From a virus (Duplodnaviria; Caudoviricetes), in IMG/VR virus record IMGVR_UViG_3300037483_000661, positions 1-37,118 of that record: a DNA stretch of 37,118 nt, one strand, 5' to 3'. Shown in pieces: positions 23,396 to 33,363 of this stretch. The stretch's first letter is position 1. Every line of letters starts with the position of its first letter. A program made the translations under genes and the position numbers. The notes beneath the pieces are model-generated. The model saw nothing but the letters and a program-made list of their open reading frames with translations. It made no database searches and was not told the DNA's origin.

Positions 23396-24109
23396 CTACC
23401 TAGGACCCATCGCGACCTTGTCCTGGCCCGTCACGGTCACGCCGGCCGCCAGCAGCAGCGGCCGCACCGCGAGCAACGCCGCAGGGTCATGGTCCCCGAG
23501 CGGGACGTCTCCGGGCTGCATGAGCCCACGCAGCCGGTCGATCTGACCCGCGCGTTCCAGGCTCCGGTGCCCACGGCGCCGGAGGATGACGGCGGCGCGG
23601 CGCAGCCCGCGCTCCGTGAGCGCGGCCGCCCGCATGCGGGGCAGGCCCGGCAGCGCGACCTCCGTGGCCATCGCCGCCGACCAGGCGGCCCGTTCAAACC
23701 ATGGCAGCGGCGCGACACTCCCCATTTGGACGTCAGACAAAGCCTGGTCGCGTCCGTTGCCATGGTCCTGCGTGAGCGCAGCCGAGGGAGACAGCTTCCC
23801 TTTGGGTGTCACGGCGGACGTGGTCTCCTCGTCGGCTACGCGATCCTGATCGGCCTCATGACCCGGCACCCCACAGATGGTTGACAGTTCGAGTCTGGCC
23901 GGGTCCTGAGGCCGCAGGGTCGGCGGGCGTGTCCGGTGCAGATCCCGCTCGACCACGGTGAGGAAGTACTCGCCCAGATCCTCCCAGAGGCGCAGGGCGT
24001 CGGATTGGAGCGCGGCCGCGACGCGGCGCATCGCCGTTCGGAGCGGCAGGCCGCTGCGCGTGCGCTCGGCCACGATCCGCTCGTAGAGGTCCCGCGGGGT
24101 GTACGTCAT
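23396..24109 (-). CDS. Hypothetical protein (237 aa) with three guide units embedded in its middle
   Basis: ATGA-coupled to the TasA-like gene; helical-looking N- and C-terminal parts flank the array-encoded segment. Confidence 0.6.
   Translation of the reverse strand: MTYTPRDLYERIVAERTRSGLPLRTAMRRVAAALQSDALRLWEDLGEYFLTVVERDLHRTRPPTLRPQDPARLELSTICGVPGHEADQDRVADEETTSAVTPKGKLSPSAALTQDHGNGRDQALSDVQMGSVAPLPWFERAAWSAAMATEVALPGLPRMRAAALTERGLRRAAVILRRRGHRSLERAGQIDRLRGLMQPGDVPLGDHDPAALLAVRPLLLAAGVTVTGQDKVAMGPR
23698..23918 (-). ncRNA. TIGR-like stem-loop guide array, downstream block (3 units)
   Basis: Minus strand: CCA-GACTCGAAC-TGTCAACCA-TCTGTGGGG-TG; CCA-CGTCCGCCG-TGACACCCA-AAGGGAAGC-TG; CCA-GGCTTTGTC-TGACGTCCA-AATGGGGAG-TG; each enclosed by its own complementary stem; period 75-76 nt. 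Confidence 0.88.
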
Positions 24110-24855
24110 GCGACCACCCCCACGCCGCTGTAGCGGGGATCGTAGTCATGCGCGATCCGCCAGGCGTCCCGGAGGATCGCCTTCGCGGTGACGCGGAGCG
24201 CGTCCGCGTGGAGGTGCGCCGCCTTCCAATGCGGCCCGCCGAGGTTGGCACAGTCCCATCCGGTCTTCCCCGTCGTGCGCCGCTTGGCATACGCCGCGTC
24301 ACACGTCGCGCAGCCGTCGCCCTCGGCGAGCATGGGGAGGGCGTCGTGCGGGGCACGGCGCGCGAGGTAGACCGCCCGGTACGGGGAGGTGGGCTGCTTC
24401 ATGGTGGGCTCTGCGACCCGCCAGATCCACCACGCTTTGACGATCGCGGAGTAGCGCCGGTCGTCCCGCGCCCCGGCCGGGTGCAGCCCCACGTAGCGCC
24501 AGACGGACGCGACGGTGGGCGACCCCGGGAACTCGGCCAGCGGTATGAGGGGCGGCGTGAGGCTCAGGCATCGGAACGTCGCCACGCCCAGGCCGCGGGT
24601 CCCCTCCACCCAGGCCGCAATCGCGGTGTCCGTCCAGTACTCCGCAATCGCGCGATCGAGGGGGGCTAGGAAGGCGCGCAAGTCGGCGCTGGCGTTGTCT
24701 ATCCAGCGATCGAGCGCCTCGTCCGGCGGGATCTTGCCACGCGCGAACGCCGCGCGGCGATTCTCGAGCGCGCGGAGCACCTGCTCGGCCTGGCGGTAGT
24801 AGGTGGCCAGTTTCCGGGCCTCGAGATAGTCAGCGGGCTCTGGATAGGGACGCAT
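24106..24855 (-). CDS. tasA: TasA-like Nop-domain RNA-binding protein (IS110 C-terminal domain homologue, no nuclease domain; 249 aa)
   Basis: N-terminal coiled coil, GTRGLG helix-hairpin-helix, F...TVASVWRYVGLHP, SPYRAVY, ALRVTAKAILRDAW as in the IS110/IS116 C-terminal (Nop-like) domain; no DEDD RuvC or HNH domain; flanked by CCA/TG-box dual-spacer units. Confidence 0.82.
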   Translation of the reverse strand: MRPYPEPADYLEARKLATYYRQAEQVLRALENRRAAFARGKIPPDEALDRWIDNASADLRAFLAPLDRAIAEYWTDTAIAAWVEGTRGLGVATFRCLSLTPPLIPLAEFPGSPTVASVWRYVGLHPAGARDDRRYSAIVKAWWIWRVAEPTMKQPTSPYRAVYLARRAPHDALPMLAEGDGCATCDAAYAKRRTTGKTGWDCANLGGPHWKAAHLHADALRVTAKAILRDAWRIAHDYDPRYSGVGVVA

Positions 24856-25324
24856 GGCAGCTTACTCCTGGGGTGAGGGGGGGCGGAGGGGGCAGGACAG
24901 GGGGGCCCTGGGTGTCAACTGCCGGTTGGTCCTGCCCCCGTGACTCGTGAGCGGTGTGCGGAGGGGGCAGGACATCCCCTTGGTGGGTGTCAGCGTCACC
25001 ATGGTCCTGCCCCCGTAACCGGTAGAGGTGCGCCGGTCGGCCGGCGCTCGTGAATCGGAGCTCCTGGCACCGTTCGATCAGGCCAGCGTCGACCAGCTCC
25101 TTGAGCCGCCGGCACGCGGTCGCCGCCCGCCAGCTGAACCGCTGGTCGAGCTCGTCGCCGGTCAGCGGCCCGTCGGCCAGGGCCTCGAGGATCCGCGCCC
25201 GGTGCGTGTTGGCACGCTCGGTCATGGACTGCGCCGCCAGGTGCGACGTGCGCGGATCCGTGCGCCGCGCCCGCGGGGCCGGGACCTCGTCGAACAGGGA
25301 GGCTTGTCCGGGCAGGGGGGCCAT
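24830..25324 (-). CDS. Winged-HTH DNA-binding protein whose C-terminal extension is encoded by two guide units
   Basis: RARRTDPRTSHLAA, RILEAL..GPLTGDEL...RRLKELVDAGLIE wHTH; C-terminal GQD..DT..VLPPP repeats come from the array. Confidence 0.75.
   Translation of the reverse strand: MAPLPGQASLFDEVPAPRARRTDPRTSHLAAQSMTERANTHRARILEALADGPLTGDELDQRFSWRAATACRRLKELVDAGLIERCQELRFTSAGRPAHLYRLRGQDHGDADTHQGDVLPPPHTAHESRGQDQPAVDTQGPPVLPPPPPLTPGVSCHASLSRAR
24888..25014 (-). ncRNA. TIGR-like stem-loop guide array, upstream block (2 units)
   Basis: Minus strand GGGGGCAGGA-CCA-TGGTGACGC-TGACACCCA-CCAAGGGGA-TG-TCCTGCCCCC and GGGGGCAGGA-CCA-ACCGGCAGT-TGACACCCA-GGGCCCCCC-TG-TCCTGCCCCC; perfect 10-bp stems, 75-nt period. 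Confidence 0.9.
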
Positions 25325-25329
25325 TGGCG

Positions 25330-25977
25330 CTACTTCGCCGTCCGGAGCGCGTGCTCCCATGCCTTGCGGTACTCGTCGGCGTACACCTTGGCCGCGGTCG
25401 CCTGGATCGTGGCGACGAACCGCAGCTCCGGCGTGATCGGGACGGACGGCACCAGGACGTAGAGCGGGACCGTCCCACCCCGCGCCTTCCGGCGGTAGAT
25501 CACGCCCGTCGTCGCCGTGACCATGACGCGGACCAGGTCGTCCGAGACTTCGGTCCGGTCATTCACACGGAGCCACGTCCGGCCCGTGAGGGCGTCCCGC
25601 TTCGCCGGCCGGCCGCTCCCCGTTCTCTTCATGGCCGGGAGCGGGACCGCGATCGTCGGACCGCGGCGCGCGCGCTTCTCGGTCTCGGTCTCGAACTTCC
25701 CCAGGATATCGGCCCGGGCCATGCCGCCCGGCGGCTCGAGCCGGAGGACCGCGACGAGGCTCCGCTTCGTGGCCCGCGGCTTGAGCTTGACAGCCCGGCT
25801 CACGAACAGGCGGTTCCGGACCGTGAAGATGGACTCCATCTGGGCCCGCTGGGCCGCCTGGGCGGCGAGCGCGGTCGCGTTGAGCGCCACGGCCCGGGCA
25901 AAGGGCTCCTGGTCCCGGAACAGCGTCCGGATCACCCGCCCCACGGGCTCGGCGTTGGTGGTCACGCGGACGATCAT
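25330..25977 (-). CDS. Lambda gpZ-like (tail completion/neck) basic protein (215 aa)
   Basis: ATG 25977 after GGAGGG; PFARAVALNATA...RATKRSLVAV pattern, very basic. Confidence 0.6.
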   Translation of the reverse strand: MIVRVTTNAEPVGRVIRTLFRDQEPFARAVALNATALAAQAAQRAQMESIFTVRNRLFVSRAVKLKPRATKRSLVAVLRLEPPGGMARADILGKFETETEKRARRGPTIAVPLPAMKRTGSGRPAKRDALTGRTWLRVNDRTEVSDDLVRVMVTATTGVIYRRKARGGTVPLYVLVPSVPITPELRFVATIQATAAKVYADEYRKAWEHALRTAK

Positions 25978-26219
25978 GGTTTCCCTCCGTTCGCGACCCG
26001 GAGCCGCTGGCGCCAGGGGTAGGAGATGACCCAGCCGACGAAGAGGAGGCCGCCGGCAGCCGCCCAGACGGGCCAGAGCGCGCCGCCCAGGAGCAGCAGG
26101 GGCCGCGGGTGCCGGATCGCGCGGGCCCGCCGATCCACGCGCAGCAGGAGCGCCGTCAGGGCGGTCCCCTGAATCGCGCCCAGGCCGTAGCCCAATAGGA
26201 TCCACAGCGCGGCCGTCAT
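25974..26219 (-). CDS. Small membrane protein (81 aa)
   Basis: Two hydrophobic stretches; 4-nt overlaps with neighbours. Confidence 0.55.
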   Translation of the reverse strand: MTAALWILLGYGLGAIQGTALTALLLRVDRRARAIRHPRPLLLLGGALWPVWAAAGGLLFVGWVISYPWRQRLRVANGGKP

Positions 26220-26701
26220 CCGTGCCCCCGGGCCTGGGCCTCGCGCGTGCCGGCCTCCATGGCGCAGCGCGTGCACAGGTTTTCCCGATAGAGCCCGCCA
26301 TCGTGCACCGGCACGCCGCACTTGGCGCACGTGGCCAGGGGCGGGGCCGGGACCGGCTTCGCGCGGAACGCGGCCGCGATCCCGGTCCCGACCAGGACCG
26401 GATCCTCTAGCGTGATCGGCTCCCAGGCGTCCCGGCCGCCGAAGTAGCGGAGGAACACGCCGAGCTCGACCTCCCAGGCCCGGAGTCCCTCGGCCGTGGC
26501 CGGTGTCTCGCCCCGGGCGATCCGGAGCTCGAGCGCGCCGGCCGCACCGACCCGCCGGAGCGAGACGATGGCGCCGCGCGGCAGCGCGTACCACGCCCAG
26601 CGCCCGCCGAGCTCGGCCGCGCGCATCACGAGCTTGGCGAAGAGGTCGGGGAGGCTCCCGCGCCAGATACGGGACTCGGGAATCGTCGGGACGTTAGGCA
26701 T
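26216..26701 (-). CDS. Hypothetical protein with C-terminal CxxC...CxxC zinc ribbon
   Basis: CAKC...CTRC; in a coupled gene chain. Confidence 0.6.
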   Translation of the reverse strand: MPNVPTIPESRIWRGSLPDLFAKLVMRAAELGGRWAWYALPRGAIVSLRRVGAAGALELRIARGETPATAEGLRAWEVELGVFLRYFGGRDAWEPITLEDPVLVGTGIAAAFRAKPVPAPPLATCAKCGVPVHDGGLYRENLCTRCAMEAGTREAQARGHG

Positions 26702-27068
26702 CGGGCGCCGTCTCGGTCAGGGTGATGGCGACGCCGTGCGGTTCCGCGACGTGCTGCCCGGGCAGGCCGGCGAGCACGCAATACGGCTCCCGATCGTCGA
26801 CGACCAGGCCGGCGCGGACGAGACAGTCGATCGCCCACTTGCAGCGGGCCATGGCGTTGTCCCGGTCCATGCGCTGCGGGAGATAGAGCTCGATCTCGAC
26901 CCGGGCCTCCCGGAACGGCTGCGGCCGGCCGCGGAGGGCGCGCTCGGTCACGAGGGCGCGGAGATAGTACGCCTTCCGTTTCCGGTGCCACGTTGCCCAG
27001 TGCATCCCCTTGAGGTGATTCGCGAGGTTGGGCGGGAGCGGGAGCCGGAGCGTCAGGGTGCGGCTCAT
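26694..27068 (-). CDS. rusA: RusA-like Holliday junction resolvase (124 aa)
   Basis: LPLPPNLAN...DRDN...K.AIDCL..AGLVVDD catalytic pattern. Confidence 0.8.
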   Translation of the reverse strand: MSRTLTLRLPLPPNLANHLKGMHWATWHRKRKAYYLRALVTERALRGRPQPFREARVEIELYLPQRMDRDNAMARCKWAIDCLVRAGLVVDDREPYCVLAGLPGQHVAEPHGVAITLTETAPDA

Positions 27069-27268
27069 GCTGGCCGCCAATCGTGCGCGGGTAGTGGCCC
27101 CATGAGGATGCCCGGGCGTGGATCCCACGATAGGAGGACACCGCGTTCGGGCTCGCCGAGCTGCTCATGCCATTCATCCCATGTGAGGCCGCCTCCCGCC
27201 TCACACCACGCGAAGAACGCAGCCTCATCGGACGGAAAACGACTCAGCATCAGGGCGCGGGCGCTCAT
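27065..27268 (-). CDS. Hypothetical protein (67 aa)
   Basis: ATGA overlaps on both sides (MSARALMLSRFPSDEAAFF...). Confidence 0.5.
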   Translation of the reverse strand: MSARALMLSRFPSDEAAFFAWCEAGGGLTWDEWHEQLGEPERGVLLSWDPRPGILMGPLPAHDWRPA

Positions 27269-27501
27269 TGCGGCTGCGGTCCATGGTGACGGCCCCAGAC
27301 CGTGCGCGCGTCCTCGGTTGTGGCCGGCCGCGGCACGTCCCTGAGCTCCTGCTCGAACTCCGGCCCGTGCTCGGTGACGACCTGGACGAGGGCCACGTAC
27401 AGCAGGCAGGGCGTGCCGGCCGCGGTCGTCCCTTTCCAGATCCGGCACGGGATCCCCTTCACCGGGAGCACGTCGTCGGTGTGCTCGATCGCGATCTTCA
27501 T
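27265..27501 (-). CDS. Hypothetical protein (78 aa, MKIAIEHTDD...PCRIWKGTT)
   Basis: ATGA-coupled, protein-like sequence. Confidence 0.6.
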   Translation of the reverse strand: MKIAIEHTDDVLPVKGIPCRIWKGTTAAGTPCLLYVALVQVVTEHGPEFEQELRDVPRPATTEDARTVWGRHHGPQPQ

Positions 27502-27821
27502 CCCACGACCCACCACGCGACGAGGGCCCCGGCCAGCGCCAACACCAACCGCCAGACCACGTTGAGCCAGAGCGTCGCGCCGTAGACGCCACGGACGGCC
27601 TTGTAGAACTGGTTGACGGCCTCGGCGAGGAGCGCCGCACCGATTGCCGGCGCCGGCGCGCTGTGCAGGAAACGCACGAACGCCCACACCAGCAGCGCGG
27701 CCCCGACCGGATGCGCGATGAGCGGGCGCCGCTTCACGCCATCCAGGAAGCCGAGGAGCCCGGGCGCGATAGGCCCGCCGGATGGGCTGACGAACCAGCG
27801 CCAGGGGGGAAACCACGTCAT
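27498..27821 (-). CDS. Membrane protein (107 aa)
   Basis: Several hydrophobic helices; AAGGAG RBS; ATGA-coupled. Confidence 0.55.
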   Translation of the reverse strand: MTWFPPWRWFVSPSGGPIAPGLLGFLDGVKRRPLIAHPVGAALLVWAFVRFLHSAPAPAIGAALLAEAVNQFYKAVRGVYGATLWLNVVWRLVLALAGALVAWWVVG

Positions 27822-28057
27822 CTGATCGCTCCTTCGGTGGGGCTGGGACACGTGCACGCGCCGATATCGCCGTCGGTCTCGAGGCCGGCCGCGTCCATCG
27901 CGTAGCCGCCGGGGCGCGGCTCCCAGCGCGTGAGGCGCGTCGGGACGTAGCGCCCGATCGGCTTCCCGCACCGCCGACACGCCGGCGCCGCGGCGAGCTC
28001 GGCCTCCTGTTGCGCGCGGAAGGCGGCGACCAGCTTCCCGCGGACGCTGTGCTTCAT
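27818..28057 (-). CDS. Small Cys-containing hypothetical protein (79 aa)
   Basis: GAGGAGG RBS; CRRC...CTC. Confidence 0.55.
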   Translation of the reverse strand: MKHSVRGKLVAAFRAQQEAELAAAPACRRCGKPIGRYVPTRLTRWEPRPGGYAMDAAGLETDGDIGACTCPSPTEGAIR

Positions 28058-28257
28058 GCGGGCGTGTCCTCCTCGCCTGGGCCTTCGAGGTGCCCGATGC
28101 ACAAGCCCGTGCCCGGGACCTCCTCGTACAGGCACCCGGACGGATGCGTGCAGTAGGCGGTGACTTCCGTGAGCAGCGGCTCCCGGGCGTTCACCATGGC
28201 CTGACGCGCGCGCGCCGGGATGGGGTTGCCGAGCCCGTCGAGGATGCCGTCCCTCAT
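28054..28257 (-). CDS. Hypothetical protein (67 aa)
   Basis: ATGA-coupled chain. Confidence 0.5.
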   Translation of the reverse strand: MRDGILDGLGNPIPARARQAMVNAREPLLTEVTAYCTHPSGCLYEEVPGTGLCIGHLEGPGEEDTPA

Positions 28258-28475
28258 GCCTGCCCCCGGGACTCGGCCACGAGCCGGCGCTCCTCGGTGT
28301 TCAACGCCTCGCGGACCCGGGCCTTCGCGCCCGCCAGGCCCTTAATCACGATCGGACCCGGGGTCGCCTCGAGCACGCGCCAGACGAGGGGCGTCGTCTC
28401 GCCGAGGTAGTCCGCGTCGTCGCGGCACCGCTCGAGATCGCGGAGGAGGCGGCGGAGCTCCTCGACGCGCGTCAT
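28254..28475 (-). CDS. Hypothetical helical protein (73 aa)
   Basis: ATGA-coupled chain, MTRVEELRRLLRDLER. Confidence 0.55.
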   Translation of the reverse strand: MTRVEELRRLLRDLERCRDDADYLGETTPLVWRVLEATPGPIVIKGLAGAKARVREALNTEERRLVAESRGQA

Positions 28476-28741
28476 GGCTCGAGCACCTCGCACGTGACCC
28501 GGAACCGCGCGGGCGCCATCACGGCCACGGTGCGCGTCTCCCGGGCCTCCGCCGGCGTTTGGGGAATGGTCCGGAGCACGACGTCGCCCGCGTGCAGCGG
28601 CGTCCGGAACCCCCGATCGCGCAGCTCCCAGCCGTGCGCGAGTTGATACGTGCCCGGCGGCCAGGGCGTGACCTCGGGGCGGAACGCGATCGCCTCGAGC
28701 GTGCGCTCGTACGGCGTCCCGGGACGGAGGCGGACGATCAT
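28472..28741 (-). CDS. Hypothetical protein (89 aa)
   Basis: ATGA-coupled chain, MIVRLRPGTPYERTLEAIAF. Confidence 0.55.
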   Translation of the reverse strand: MIVRLRPGTPYERTLEAIAFRPEVTPWPPGTYQLAHGWELRDRGFRTPLHAGDVVLRTIPQTPAEARETRTVAVMAPARFRVTCEVLEP

Positions 28742-29025
28742 GGCGTGCCCTCGGTGGCGCGGATCGACGTGGCGGCGGTGTAGCTGGCGTCGATCGCGGC
28801 GGTCGCCTCGGCGAGCAGCTGCCGGGACGCGTCCGGGACCTCGCCCGCGGTGAGCTGGTGGTAGCGGCGGGTCTGCAGGCGCGCTACGCGCTCGCGCAAC
28901 GCGACCGGGATCCGGCGCCAGTGGGGCCAGCAGAACAGCCGGTAGGCGTGGATCTCGGCCGTGCACGTGCTGTAGCCGCATCGGCCGGTCGGCTCGCGGG
29001 GATCCCCGATGCCGGGCCGGGTCAT
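28738..29025 (-). CDS. Hypothetical protein with Cys/His cluster (95 aa)
   Basis: C....C.......FCWPHW pattern. Confidence 0.6.
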   Translation of the reverse strand: MTRPGIGDPREPTGRCGYSTCTAEIHAYRLFCWPHWRRIPVALRERVARLQTRRYHQLTAGEVPDASRQLLAEATAAIDASYTAATSIRATEGTP

Positions 29026-29558
29026 CGCTGCCCCGCCCGGGTGAAGAGGTCGAGCTGCGCCCGGAAGGTCTCAATCCCGGGATGCCACGCGCCCCACCGG
29101 CGGACGATCGTCCCGAACTCGGCCAGATCGTGCGGGACCATGATCCAGCCGCGGTCCGGGTCCCGGCTACAGTGACTCAGCTCGTGGTCGACCAGCGCGA
29201 GCCGCTGGGAGAGGTCGAGCTCCTGCCATGCCTTCCAGGAGTAGACGATCAGGAAGTCGACGCGCGCCAGGTGGACGAGCTCGGCGCTGGCCCGCTTCGC
29301 CCGCGCCACGACCCGGCACGGATCCGCGCCGCCGAACTGGTGCCGGTAGAGGTGCGCGATCCGGGCGCCCGCGAGCTCCGGATGCCACGCCTTGCGGACC
29401 AGGGTTGCGAACGCGGCCGGGACCTCGGCGTCGATGTACCGCGTCCCGTCGTCCGGCCAGGCCATCGGGTCGACATGCTCGGCCAGGGCAAGGCGAACGT
29501 CGTCGCCGTCCAAGCCGGCCGGCAACCGATTGAGCTCCTCCCGCCAGTCGGTCGTCAT
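29022..29558 (-). CDS. Putative phage metallopeptidase (HExxH)
   Basis: ALVDHELSHC...PHDLAEFGTIVRRWG motif. Confidence 0.8.
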   Translation of the reverse strand: MTTDWREELNRLPAGLDGDDVRLALAEHVDPMAWPDDGTRYIDAEVPAAFATLVRKAWHPELAGARIAHLYRHQFGGADPCRVVARAKRASAELVHLARVDFLIVYSWKAWQELDLSQRLALVDHELSHCSRDPDRGWIMVPHDLAEFGTIVRRWGAWHPGIETFRAQLDLFTRAGQR

Positions 29559-30259
29559 CGGGGGCCTCCATGGTGGGCCTCGAGGAGCTCGCGTGCCGCC
29601 TGGACGTCGGCGAACGCCGCCTCGTTCCCGCCGGCGACGTCGGGATGGGTCCGCTTCACCGCCGCGCGGTAGGCGCGCCGGGCAACGTCGGCGTCGGCCA
29701 GGATCGCGTCGTCGCTCTCGTCGGACTCGCGGGCGAGGATCGCGGCCGCGACCTCCGGGGTCTGCGGCGCGGGTCCCGTCGTCGTGCTGCTGGGGAGCTG
29801 CCGGAACCCGACGTATTGCTCGCCCTTCCCCGTGACGCCATGGCGGTCGACGGCGCGCAGCGCCTCGAGCGAGAGCGCGATCGCGCGGACGTTGGCCTGC
29901 CAGCCGGGATGCGCGAGGTCGAAGTACCCGCCCCCGTCGTAGCGGTCACAGTGGTAGCGCAGCCAGCCGAGTTGCGGGTGCAGGAGGGCGACGGCGACGC
30001 GGGGCGAGGCCGGGCGCGCGTCCGACCGGATCCAGCCGTCCTGCCGGAGGTCGCGGTCACGGAGATCCAGCTCGAGCACGAGCTCGCGGGTGCCCAGGGC
30101 CGCGGCTTCCCGCCGGAGGAGGGTCTCGGTCGCTGTCCAGAACCCGCCCCGCATGCCGGCCCCGAAGGGCGAGCGGACCCGGGACCGCGTGATCGGCCAC
30201 GGCCAGCCGGCGAGGACCGCAGCTCGGACCCGCACGTCAACTGCCTGTAATCGGCTCAC
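29555..30259 (-). CDS. J-domain (DnaJ-like) co-chaperone protein (234 aa)
   Basis: C-terminal AYRAAVKRTHPDVAGG..AAFADVQAA with HPD motif; N-terminal CDRY...NVRAIALSLEALRAVDRHGV; GTG 30259 overlaps the upstream stop. Confidence 0.85.
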   Translation of the reverse strand: MSRLQAVDVRVRAAVLAGWPWPITRSRVRSPFGAGMRGGFWTATETLLRREAAALGTRELVLELDLRDRDLRQDGWIRSDARPASPRVAVALLHPQLGWLRYHCDRYDGGGYFDLAHPGWQANVRAIALSLEALRAVDRHGVTGKGEQYVGFRQLPSSTTTGPAPQTPEVAAAILARESDESDDAILADADVARRAYRAAVKRTHPDVAGGNEAAFADVQAARELLEAHHGGPR

Positions 30260-30939
30260 CCCTGGGCCTCCCGGATTCGCTGAAATCGCTCCATCCAATG
30301 CGCCTCAATTCGGGTCGCCTCGCGCGCCTTGGGTTCCTGGTGTTCGTCCGGAGGACGTCTCGGATTCTCCACATCTCGACATACCTCAGAACCCGATATG
30401 ACTCCGTCACTTCTGGAATCCGAGACCCCCCCCGACCCCCCCCTATGTAGACGCTCCGGCCGGGGGATATTCCGGTCGGCGGAGGGGGTCGGGGGCGGAT
30501 TATCATCCGGCGGGGCGCGGATTATCCTCCGGTCCGGAGGGCCGGCGCGAGCCGGAATATCCTCCGCCCTCCCGGCCGCGATCGCCTGGGCCCGGAGGTG
30601 GACGTCGAGCGCCTGGCCGCATCGCGCGAGCTCGGGCCGGGTCCGGTTGGCCGGCGCGCACCCGGTCGGCAGCGTGGCGTACCAGGTGGAGCCGGCGCGG
30701 CCGTCCACCCGGGGGCCGCGGACCAGGAGCGCGGCCCGCTGCAGGAACCGCTGGTAGCGGGTCACCGTCTCCTCGGCCATGCCGAGCTCGTCGGCGAGGG
30801 TGGCGGACCGCATCGTGCACCCCTCGGTCGCCTGGTCGAGGAGCCGCATCTTGAGCCACACGAGCTTGACGCCGGCGGGGAGCACCCGCGATCGCTCGAT
30901 GATGCCCGCGGCACACGGCGGGAGCCGATCCGGTCTCAC
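30256..30939 (-). CDS. Putative replication initiator (N-terminal HTH, iteron-bearing linker)
   Basis: KLVWLKM...TLADELGMAEETVTRYQRFL..AALL HTH; internal 16-bp repeats as in lambda O-type genes. Confidence 0.7.
   Translation of the reverse strand: MRPDRLPPCAAGIIERSRVLPAGVKLVWLKMRLLDQATEGCTMRSATLADELGMAEETVTRYQRFLQRAALLVRGPRVDGRAGSTWYATLPTGCAPANRTRPELARCGQALDVHLRAQAIAAGRAEDIPARAGPPDRRIIRAPPDDNPPPTPSADRNIPRPERLHRGGSGGVSDSRSDGVISGSEVCRDVENPRRPPDEHQEPKAREATRIEAHWMERFQRIREAQG
30460..30567. repeat. Four iteron-like 16-bp repeats, consensus SCGGAWTATCMYCCGS (putative replication origin)
   Basis: 30495-30510 gcggattatcatccgg, 30517-30532 gcggattatcctccgg, 30552-30567 ccggaatatcctccgc, and inverted 30460-30475 (rc ccggaatatcccccgg). 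Confidence 0.75.
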
Positions 30940-31499
30940 CGCTGCCCTTGCCGGCGCTTGCCGACCTCACCGGGCGCCAGCTGCGTCCCGCAGCCGTCGC
31001 ATGGATTGTGGGTCGTGCGCTTCGCACAGTGCGGGCAATCGGTTGCGGGGATCCGGGCCCGGCCGTCCCGCGTCTTGGGGCCCGGTTTGGCCGACCGGGC
31101 CGGCGTCGCCCAGCCGTGCGCCTTCGCGTGACACCGCACGGCCTCCCCGGTGACTGGGAGCCGCAAGCGGTCCCGGATCTCCTGAAAGGAGAGGCCCTGG
31201 TCCTCCCGGAGTCGGCGCGCGGCGTCGACGTCCCAGGAGGGTGCGCGCGGGGCGCTCGCGGGCGCCTGGCGCATGGTTGGCTCGGCCGCCGGGCGTTGGC
31301 GCCGCGGCTGGGTGGCGCGGCCTGGGGGCCGCCTGGTGCGTTTCCCGGCAGGGAGGCGCTTCGGCGCCGTCTCGCCATCCTCCACGTACGACGAGAGCAG
31401 CAGCTTGAGGGCGGTCATCCGGTCGCCGGTCCGGACGAGCTCGAGCTCGAGCCGCGCGAGCTCGGCGTGCGTGGCGTCCAGGAACGCGGCGGCGCTCAT
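30936..31499 (-). CDS. Hypothetical DNA-binding protein (coiled coil, HTH, zinc ribbon)
   Basis: ARRLREDQGLSFQEIRDRL HTH-like; CPHC...CDGC. Confidence 0.65.
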   Translation of the reverse strand: MSAAAFLDATHAELARLELELVRTGDRMTALKLLLSSYVEDGETAPKRLPAGKRTRRPPGRATQPRRQRPAAEPTMRQAPASAPRAPSWDVDAARRLREDQGLSFQEIRDRLRLPVTGEAVRCHAKAHGWATPARSAKPGPKTRDGRARIPATDCPHCAKRTTHNPCDGCGTQLAPGEVGKRRQGQR

Positions 31500-31639
31500 G
31501 GGAGCCCCGCGAGCGGCCAGACGAGGAGGAGCACGGCCAGGCCGACGAGCACAAGGATGATCGTTATGTCGAGCGCGATCAGCCCGCGGAGCTGGCGGAC
31601 CCGGCGCTCAAGACGGCGGATCTCCGGGTTGGCGGTCAC
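31496..31639 (-). CDS. Small single-TM protein (47 aa), not in ORF track
   Basis: GTG 31639 to TGA 31496 with 4-nt overlaps at both ends; MTANPEIRRLERRVRQLRGLIALDITIILVLVGLAVLLLVWPLAGLP. Confidence 0.6.
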   Translation of the reverse strand: MTANPEIRRLERRVRQLRGLIALDITIILVLVGLAVLLLVWPLAGLP

Positions 31640-33363
31640 CGCTTCGCCCCTTTCTTCACCGGCCGGCCCTTGGGCGCGGGCTTCGCCGGAGCGGTCTCGA
31701 TCGGGGCGGCGGCGGCCTTGAGCCGGGCGATTGCCTGCTTCGTGAGCTCGGCGGTCGACGGCGCGGCCGTGACGAACCAGGCGGTGAACGTCAGGAGGCT
31801 CGCCGCGGCGGTGACGTCGGTCGGCGTCTCCCGGTCAAACGCCCCGCGGAGGGCCTTGGCCTTGTGGAGCGCGTCGAACCACTCGCCGGCGAGATCTCGC
31901 GGCTGTGCCCACGGGTCGAGGATCCGCTGACGTTTGTCGATGCGCGCGAAACCGTCGTCATACTCGAGGAGCACCCGCCCCAACTGGAAGCCGATCGCGG
32001 CGACGACCCGGGGATCGAGGGCCGCGATGGCGTGCGACGCGATCTCCTGGTGCAGCGCCGGATCCGCCGCGCGCTCGGTAATCAGCGCCTCGATAGCCTC
32101 GCGGATCTTGTCGTCGTCCTCCCAGGGGAGCTGCTTCGGGGCCTTCGTCGCTTTCGCCGGGGACGCGTCGCCCGCGGCCGGCGCCGGCCGGGCCTTCGGG
32201 GCCACGCGCGTGATCGTCGCCCACTCGACCGTCCCCGCCTTCGCGTCGGCGATGTGGATCACCTGGACGGCGCCCTTGGCGCCCGCGGCCGCCTTATTCC
32301 ACTCGCCCCGCTTCGCATCAGCCTTCCCGCGCACGTCGCCCGCCGTCACCTTGGCGAGCTTCACGCCGCGGGCCTTGTGCTCCTGGATCGTGCGCGCGAC
32401 GTGCGCGTCCGTCTTCCCCGCGAAGCAGGCGCGGTCGGTGCACTCGTCCTTCCCGGCGGCGAGCTCCGGGAACAGGGCCGGCTGGAACCCGGTCCGCTTG
32501 GGACACGTGACACAGCTCCCGGCGGCCGGCACCAGCTCCGCGTCGGCGGTCGGGAACGGCGCCGTCTTGAGGTTGAGATGGACCTCCTCCTCGATCCAGC
32601 GCCGCAGCTCGGCCAGTGTGCCGGGCGGCCGGAGGAGGCTGCTGTGCGTGCCGCCCCAGATCGTCGGAACCAGCTTCCGGAGCGGGCGGGTCCCGTCGTC
32701 CTCGCGGAGCCCGCCGCTCCCCAGGCCGTAGACGCCGCCCAGGACGGCCGCCCGTTGGCGATCGGCCGGGACGCGCGCGATCAGCAGGGCGTGCGCGAGC
32801 GGGAGCGTGCCGTCGATGAGCAGCGTGGCCACGTCGGGCCGGAGCTCGCGCAGCTTGAGCCGCTGGTAGACGAACGTGTCCGTCTTGCCCGTCAGGGCGG
32901 CGAGCTCGGCCACGGTGCAGACCGGCCCGCCCCCGTTCCCGTCGAGCAGGGAGGCGAACGCCTGGGCCTCCTCGAGCGGGGTCAGGTTCTCGCGGCCGAG
33001 GTTCGCGAGCGCCACCTCGCGCTTGAACTCCTCGTCGGTCATGGTCCGAATCCGGACCGGGATCAGGTCGCGCTTGGCCCGCTCGGCGGCCCGGAGCCGG
33101 CGGTGCCCGTCGGCGACCTGGTAGACGAGGGTGGGCCCGTCCTGGATCGGGCGGACGAGGAGCGGCTCGCGGACGCCATCCTCGGCGATCGCGTGCGCCA
33201 GCTCGTCGAGCGCGGCTTCGTTCAGGGCGAGGCGGGGATTGAGGCCGGACGCACGCACGGCGGCGAGCGGGACCATGGCGAGACGACCGAGCCGGTCGTC
33301 GGGGTGCGGGTCGGTCATCGGGATCGGCTCCTCGGTGGGGTGGAATGGGGACGGCGGCGTCAT
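31636..33363 (-). CDS. parB: ParB/Spo0J-family protein with long C-terminal extension (start 33363 or 33318)
   Basis: NPR...ELAHAIAEDGVREPLLVRP...VADGHRRLRAA...NLGRENLTPLEEAQAF; HTH; CVTCPKRT...CTDRACF Cys cluster. Confidence 0.92.
   Translation of the reverse strand: MTPPSPFHPTEEPIPMTDPHPDDRLGRLAMVPLAAVRASGLNPRLALNEAALDELAHAIAEDGVREPLLVRPIQDGPTLVYQVADGHRRLRAAERAKRDLIPVRIRTMTDEEFKREVALANLGRENLTPLEEAQAFASLLDGNGGGPVCTVAELAALTGKTDTFVYQRLKLRELRPDVATLLIDGTLPLAHALLIARVPADRQRAAVLGGVYGLGSGGLREDDGTRPLRKLVPTIWGGTHSSLLRPPGTLAELRRWIEEEVHLNLKTAPFPTADAELVPAAGSCVTCPKRTGFQPALFPELAAGKDECTDRACFAGKTDAHVARTIQEHKARGVKLAKVTAGDVRGKADAKRGEWNKAAAGAKGAVQVIHIADAKAGTVEWATITRVAPKARPAPAAGDASPAKATKAPKQLPWEDDDKIREAIEALITERAADPALHQEIASHAIAALDPRVVAAIGFQLGRVLLEYDDGFARIDKRQRILDPWAQPRDLAGEWFDALHKAKALRGAFDRETPTDVTAAASLLTFTAWFVTAAPSTAELTKQAIARLKAAAAPIETAPAKPAPKGRPVKKGAKR

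Follow-up and report, generated by a model that had tools for sequence, protein, structure and literature searches.

Predicted guide units of a stem-loop TIGR-TasA locus lie within the linker of a TasA partner gene in a tailed phage

The locus and its setting

The DNA analysed here, referred to as the window, represents a complete phage; the record is 37,118 bases long and has direct terminal repeats. Its PHROG-matched genes run along the minus strand in the tailed-phage order of terminase, portal, head, tail and endolysin, and the locus of interest is placed just before the gene of the terminase small subunit. The following features, all on the minus strand, make up the locus.

24830 to 25324, minus strand: helix-turn-helix (HTH) gene, its frame open through units 1 and 2 and 26 nt into tasA (Pfam HTH_20, E 8e-9; ORF list)
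24963 to 25014, minus strand: upstream unit 1, core 25004-24973, 10-bp stem (pattern and stem)
24888 to 24939, minus strand: upstream unit 2, core 24929-24898, same stem as unit 1 (pattern and stem)
24106 to 24855, minus strand: TasA-like Nop-domain gene, 249 aa, too short for a nuclease domain (homologue profile, phrog_4285)
23396 to 24109, minus strand: putative TasA partner gene, 237 aa, two conserved domains and a linker encoded by three TIGR units (codon bias, homologues, model)
23930 to 24109, minus strand: N-terminal three-helix domain of the partner, codons 1-60 (GC3 0.92; homologues; pLDDT 74-93)
23852 to 23913, minus strand: embedded unit 3, core 23898-23867, 15-bp stem (pattern and stem; spacers differ in a variant)
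23780 to 23837, minus strand: embedded unit 4, core 23823-23792 (pattern, stem, variant comparison)
23698 to 23767, minus strand: embedded unit 5, core 23747-23716 (pattern, stem, variant comparison)
23447 to 23701, minus strand: C-terminal domain of the partner, codons 137-221, comprising a helix, a short hairpin and a long helix (GC3 0.90; family profile; model)

The window has a GC content of about 72% and contains 192 ORFs of at least 80 aa. Because long chance ORFs are common at such a high GC content, any open frame through the locus needed independent support. Scans of the window for sigma-70 promoters and for terminators each returned zero, and Rfam gave just two weak matches, both below the gathering score. 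A ParB-like gene (31639-33318, minus strand) is situated about 7 kb upstream of tasA and is not adjacent to it. Across 25586-32253 (runs X1 and X2), the source-like run contains a second, more abundant relative whose upstream genes are up to 10% different, which points to a mixed population of related phages.

By its anatomy, the 249-aa gene is TasA. A profile built from 26 homologues matches TasH (21kl, E 2e-16), with the match confined to the Nop part (profile positions 14 to 248 of 264), and PDB 9mty (E 9e-20), an entry labelled as an IS110 C-terminal domain protein which we take to be the TasR structure. This 249-aa protein has 28 other relatives at E ≤ 0.001; a viral-contig scan with the window TasA alone confirmed nothing. 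In genome samples that included the seed genomes, TasA occurred in 2 of 401 and phrog_4604, discussed below, in 1 of 401. An IS110 transposon with a bridge RNA was considered and rejected, since the Nop part stands alone with no N-terminal DEDD/RuvC domain.

Anatomy of the guide units

The pattern CCA-N9-TG-N4-CCA-N9-TG has exactly five matches in the window, all on the minus strand, where a mean of 0.035 was expected from 200 simulated windows with the same first-order base statistics. A stem closes each of the five cores. The embedded units have stems unlike each other and unlike those of units 1 and 2; they recur every 75-76 nt in two different phases, their stems separated by 12-14 nt, and their loops read TGTCAACCA, TGACACCCA (peptide VTPK) and TGACGTCCA (SDVQ). 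The embedded block folds with z = -5.6, none of 200 shuffles being as good. On these features, the locus is a stem-loop TIGR-TasA system as judged from its sequence. The trinucleotide CTT is absent within 30 nt of all five cores, and since the CUU motif of Xu et al. (2026) is thus missing here, the processing route may differ. A search for targets of the five guides within the phage's own genome, in both orders and with gaps of 0-2, gave a best result of 3 mismatches of 18, which is the level of chance.

A probable gene with a predicted disordered linker

The earlier note had described a 237-codon ORF whose ATG overlaps the stop of the TasA-like gene and which carries three guide units. All of this is borne out: the ORF runs from 24109 to 23396, the overlap reads ATGA, and the three cores listed above fall inside it, occupying codons 66-138 as a block of 219 nt. 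The overlap is ordinary for this genome, as all 15 junctions picked as overlaps read ATGA or GTGA. The frame does stay open through the loops, as had been stated, with stop counts across the block of 0 in the ORF frame and 2 in each of the other two. Shuffling the block leaves any given frame open in 13% of cases, so the open frame is by itself weak evidence.

Codon usage provides firmer ground. GC3 is 0.92, 0.70 and 0.90 over codons 1-65, 66-138 and 139-237, and the codon score over the same three parts is 0.39, -0.03 and 0.22 per codon, with the other two minus-strand frames at -0.66 to -0.87. The ORF frame scores best in all three parts, on a measure trained on 11 ORFs that included tasA and of which two proved poor. 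With coding bias in both flanks and a conserved family, described below, the 237-codon ORF is very likely a real gene. Both upstream units also lie within an ORF, the tail of the HTH gene, which the earlier note had overlooked; since the HTH frame spans units 1 and 2, every one of the five units is in an open frame. Codon support for the HTH tail is weak, the whole ORF scoring 0.06 per codon.

The ordered segments proposed on either side of the array are recovered by AlphaFold2, which orders residues 5-60 and 137-221 and gives pLDDT below 50 over most of residues 65-131. The low-confidence linker coincides with the array, and a compact member of the family is modelled at a mean pLDDT of 88. 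The window partner has no match in Pfam or PHROGs. Fold searches with two models found no convincing counterpart among solved structures (best Z 5.1 and 4.6), a Foldseek search of the PDB gave nothing at E ≤ 0.001, and the ESM Atlas yielded no usable match. Among the weak fold rows are several HMG boxes matching residues 1-63 (Z no higher than 4.7), which is no more than a lead. A viral fold library returned four phage proteins at E ≤ 6e-6, the Rich and Omega proteins among them. The predicted complex of TasA with the partner scored 0.00 with a mark of 0.32, which says nothing for or against an interaction.

The partner family and its association with Tas

A phmmer search of 1.84 billion representatives found five other proteins at E ≤ 0.001. 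Four homologues aligned in full, of 175-313 aa, all contain both domains, namely the N-terminal helices and a C-terminal PW-x-R-x-x-W region, separated by linkers of very different lengths. In L013, L015 and L016, three independent loci of which L016 is a contig titled uncultured Gemmatimonadales bacterium, the top non-self match of the N-domain profile is the gene directly after tasA. At L014, a nine-unit array behind tasA is followed by an ORF (1732-1848) that is truncated by the contig end and resembles a partner N-domain.

Iterated profiles over 515 loci gave 63 ORF matches, which reduce to 49 distinct Tas loci; single-unit DNA patterns had yielded mostly loci without Tas. The partner adjoins Tas in 24 of these 49, comprising 19 of 27 stem-loop loci, 5 of 9 unclassified loci and none of 13 dual-repeat loci. 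When only loci with long flanks are counted, the figures are 16 of 19, 2 of 2 and 0 of 7, respectively. The partner lies upstream of Tas in 18 cases and downstream in 6. As the 49 loci had been chosen via Tas or array patterns, profile seeds included, the link was tested partner-first as well. A tblastn search with one partner matched 85 GenBank phage records, 80 of them from Mycobacterium phages, and a Tas gene was next door in all six records fetched, four of which are mutually close relatives and two of which are Gordonia phages. The window and L016 partners themselves gave two weak rows and none, respectively, in tblastn against GenBank phages, and a viral-contig scan with an alignment of five proteins confirmed nothing.

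The position of the window protein within this family is supported by a profile from 19 other loci. Built without the window or P0032, the profile recovers the window protein at E 4e-4 and P0032 at 2e-11 (Z = 12000). With the three closest DNA-linked members removed too, the window protein falls to E 0.66, and P0031-33 still score 8e-4 or better. In sequence, the window protein is thus tied only modestly to the wider family, a link that would run via P0031-33 once the closest members are left out; the C-domain of the window protein diverges from the family. Phrog_4604, of unknown function, is matched by 3 of 14 aligned partner members. No ParB match was found for these 14 members in Pfam or PHROGs, and none is among the fold-search rows listed; a ParB-like domain may nonetheless be present. 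Because none of the 13 dual-repeat loci has a partner, its role is most likely that of an accessory factor of stem-loop TasA systems, as far as gene neighbourhoods indicate.

Embedding of units across the family

Linker units with stems occur in 6 of the 24 partner genes, each with an open frame and both domains: three units in the window, two in L278, and one each in L013, Mycobacterium phage Rich gp51, L006 and L459, the last with a weaker stem. Rich gp51 carries two further units in an N-terminal extension. Several candidates were left out of this count, namely L015, which has no stem; L008, L016, L143 and L474, in which the unit precedes the likely start; L017/L146, where the unit lies in an N-terminal extension; and a second, degenerate candidate in L013. 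Two members examined as protein sequences only, P0031 and P0035, each contain four peptide traces of units in one phase (e.g. GHIAHDTQIYVA), where 0.1 were expected and none of 20,000 shuffles did as well, by a pattern set after these proteins had been seen.

The remaining 18 of 24 partner genes contain no linker unit, and embedding in the linker is therefore optional. At many loci units are found elsewhere as well, in tas tails, in N-terminal extensions or in gaps between genes. The cluster-A1-like mycobacteriophages Bethlehem, Arcanine, Sumter and Atkinbua carry their array in the intergenic space between partner and tas. The idea of a conserved partner with a variable linker, put forward in the earlier note, has held up: the flanks are conserved domains, and linker length and unit number vary. 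The homologue check proposed with it came out the same way, with the family neighbouring Tas genes and the frame kept in every case checked at the DNA level. Neither stops or frameshifts in homologous arrays nor unconserved flanks, the outcomes named as refuting, were seen among the homologues checked.

Spacer change between close variants

P0038, the second member of the cluster of the window protein, is also 237 aa long and has 21 differences from it. Fifteen of these fall in the 24 codons that touch a spacer (p 3e-13), two involve variable loop bases and four lie elsewhere. At the DNA level, a contig of 1464 nt from run X2, taken from another sediment study, shows 48 differences from the window. 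Among the 40 that are listed, 33 affect the 54 spacer bases, 3 the loops and 4 the stems; the 30 box bases have none. All six embedded guide segments are changed in this close variant, and length, boxes and open frame are kept; a pair of one-base gaps inside one spacer cancels out. The 1061 nt upstream, covering the N-domain, tasA and unit 2, contain a single difference. Of two third-position stem changes, read by hand, one breaks a pair (23828) and the second restores a pair (23753). P0038 and the X2 contig are probably one allele and not two tests, because changes at codons 101, 127 and 138 are common to both.

Non-spacer bases of the X2 block are about 4% different (7 of 165), and other X2 contigs differ by 3-8%. 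Because of this resemblance, the variable block may have come by recombination from a relative. Within it, spacers have diverged by at least 61% against a background of about 4%, with unit count, stems and boxes kept; spacers thus change in place within fixed slots. With random spacers, the frame would stay open in 56-81% of cases, so that a stop-free variant is consistent with selection on translation and is not proof of it.

The cultured A1-like phages show comparable change. Relative to Bethlehem, partner and tas are 1.5-3.8% different, and the two scored units differ at 19-23 of 34-36 spacer bases, a count from two units in an imperfect alignment (a relaxed rerun caught six units in three of the four phages). 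Each slot keeps its own stem, except for the last slot, in which two scaffold types occur. In these phages (L516-L519, approximately 2100-2450) a stem-loop array with some five slots occupies the space between the partner and a Tas gene that is labelled a transposase or hypothetical protein, and near-identical phages differ in spacers slot by slot. At 24909-24974 of the window, short contigs from runs X2 and X4 join the upstream units via another 9-nt spacer; spacers or unit number in the upstream array vary within the X2 and X4 samples.

Relation to known systems

Faure et al. (2025, PMC12045711) describe the processing of stem-loop arrays to individual units. The window locus resembles the stem-loop TIGR-TasA systems described there in its solo Nop-domain protein with no fused nuclease, its carriage by a phage and its units on both sides of tas. 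Each unit likewise holds two 9-nt spacers (within the published range of 8-12 nt) between a CCA box C and a TG box D, exact in 5 of 5, and variable palindromic stems take the place of edge repeats, with spacers variable and boxes fixed. Unlike the stem-loop loci in the text of that paper, the window has units inside a neighbouring protein gene. It also differs from the dual-repeat TIGR arrangement, in which edge and loop repeats alternate with a 36-nt period, since its units are 75-76 nt apart and have unlike stems. The only associated gene in the text of Faure et al. (2025) is tasParB, which accompanies dual-repeat arrays. The partner is similar to TasParB as a probable accessory gene in an apparent operon with tasA and unlike it in having no Pfam ParB match and in being found at 0 of 13 dual-repeat loci.

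That coding DNA can double as a source of tigRNAs has been reported before for tas genes: units within the tas coding sequence preserve the reading frame, coincide with disordered segments and, for BlTasA, are expressed (Xu et al. 2026, bioRxiv 10.64898/2026.09.09.750476). The same work shows that TasA represses transcription at guide-matched DNA and presents the CUU motif at the stem base as common, its text not stating it as universal. The window shares with these intragenic tigRNAs its stem-loop units in coding sequence, the kept frame and the disordered segment. There the host gene is tas, whereas in the window the hosts are the partner and the HTH tail, with no unit in 24106-24855, and the stems are without the CUU motif. 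In-place spacer change between variants is not described in the text of Xu et al. (2026), where spacer acquisition is called unknown. In the main accounts of both TIGR papers, spacer acquisition and stem-loop guide maturation are left open, and no accessory machinery is known. Across Faure et al. (2025) with its supplementary files, Xu et al. (2026) and two further preprints (bioRxiv 10.64898/2026.08.11.744272 and 10.64898/2026.09.22.753630), the text yielded no non-tas host gene, partner family or in-place spacer change; figures and bioRxiv supplements may show such loci.

The phrog_4604 proteins and Rich gp51, Bethlehem gp72 and Gordonia phage Morrissey gp43 are members of the partner family. 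Rich gp51 is like the window in having a unit in its linker, and Bethlehem gp72 and Morrissey gp43 have no embedded unit. What the locus offers is an unnamed gene family tied to stem-loop Tas, guides hosted in the linker of that gene and spacers that change in fixed slots. A coding array is moreover a built-in readout, as spacer replacement within it must keep length and avoid stops.

Proposed mechanism and competing explanations

One RNA is likely to serve both as partner message and as guide source, given the arrangement of the sequence. Judging from the overlapping starts and stops, hth, tasA and the partner would share one transcript, on which TasA would bind the CCA/UG boxes and capture the hairpins. 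A nuclease would then trim each hairpin out, as at other stem-loop loci described in Faure et al. (2025) and Xu et al. (2026), and TasA would load the guides, bind DNA targets and repress them. By analogy with published stem-loop processing, it is reasonable to infer that guide excision would cut the partner message. Trimming of units 3-5 would break that message between the two domains with no rejoining and spare the upstream tasA, so that each transcript would yield either full-length partner or guides. The units would sit in the linker because this predicted disordered segment accepts almost any residues, the sole hard limit being that the loop TGA and any new spacers put no stop in frame. 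Such cutting of the message would most probably be a side effect and not a switch under selection, as most partners have no linker units. This reading, of guides inserted where the protein tolerates any sequence, is assigned a probability of roughly 0.66.

A selected feedback switch would place the same cut under regulation: TasA loading would destroy the partner message, ribosomes crossing the linker would unfold the hairpins, and the outcome would set the ratio of TasA to partner or time guide production. The recurrence of units between the two domains in 6 of 24 partner genes, at loci unlike one another, speaks for such a switch, as do the open frames of all five units and the overlap of tasA with the partner. 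Yet the 18 of 24 partners with no linker unit argue against an obligatory coupling of message and guides, and units in tas tails, N-terminal extensions and intergenic gaps are what would be expected of insertion wherever it is tolerated; the switch is accordingly considered unlikely. The message would also be left uncut if the embedded guides were separate short transcripts from internal promoters, which Xu et al. (2026) cannot exclude for intragenic tigRNAs in the text of their account and with which the lack of a CUU motif here would agree. With 12-14 nt between stems there is little room for promoters, however, and processed units are the published norm, making this explanation improbable.

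The remaining explanations doubt either the protein, the guides or the fate of the message. Were the window copy decaying or split, only the N-domain, or a C-terminal part from Met129 or Met147, would be made and the open frame would be due to chance; the 13% of shuffled blocks that are open, the divergent C-domain and the internal ATG/TTG at codons 124, 129, 147 and 159 would fit. This is nevertheless very improbable in view of a GC3 of about 0.9 in both domains, the lack of a purine-rich ribosome site before the internal starts and the open frames of all linker-bearing homologues. Still less credible is that the embedded units are dead relics no longer loaded by TasA. Stems that resemble neither each other nor units 1 and 2, and the lack of a target in the phage's own genome, could be taken that way, but in both alleles every box is preserved, against a change in at least 33 of the 54 spacer bases. 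The earlier note had also allowed that excision might edit the message, with re-ligation producing a compact isoform. Homologues with short linkers are known (P0032, 175 aa; Bethlehem gp72, 153 aa) and the 219-nt block is a multiple of three, as is, however, every in-frame insertion, and single units, at a spacing of 75-76 nt, fall in two phases. Among 55 ORFs scanned, 37 of them without a PHROG match, none matched an RNA ligase family, and the TIGR papers mention no such step in their text. Editing is unsupported, and the chance that it occurs is slight in the extreme.

Beyond tolerated insertion, a more speculative and rather doubtful proposal is that the partner is a dedicated stem-loop factor that rewrites spacers in place within fixed stems, or matures guides, and that is switched off as its hosted guides are cut out. 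If the partner does rewrite spacers, arrays would adapt by slot-by-slot spacer replacement and not by unit addition, which would be testable in cultured phages such as Bethlehem. The partner-array-tas module is present in many cultured Mycobacterium smegmatis phages, so that these questions can be addressed in a laboratory host.

Unit variants and a possible sixth unit

Box D varies among loci (TG, CG or AG) and is uniform inside each locus (L003, L004, L013, L017, L142, L005). The Gordonia phages BENtherdunthat (L520, 2165-3439) and Spooky (L521, 2165-3421) carry three to five units inside the tas coding sequence, the arrangement that Xu et al. (2026) describe; upstream in Spooky, a single TG-type unit stands among units of the CG type. 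The window partner gene has, close to its end, a lone CCA-N9-CG (23413-23426, minus strand) with no stem by eye, which is possibly a degenerate sixth unit. A three-residue change in P0038 (codons 229-231) falls on the nine bases between CCA and CG, and an X2 contig over 23369-23519 contains seven differences.
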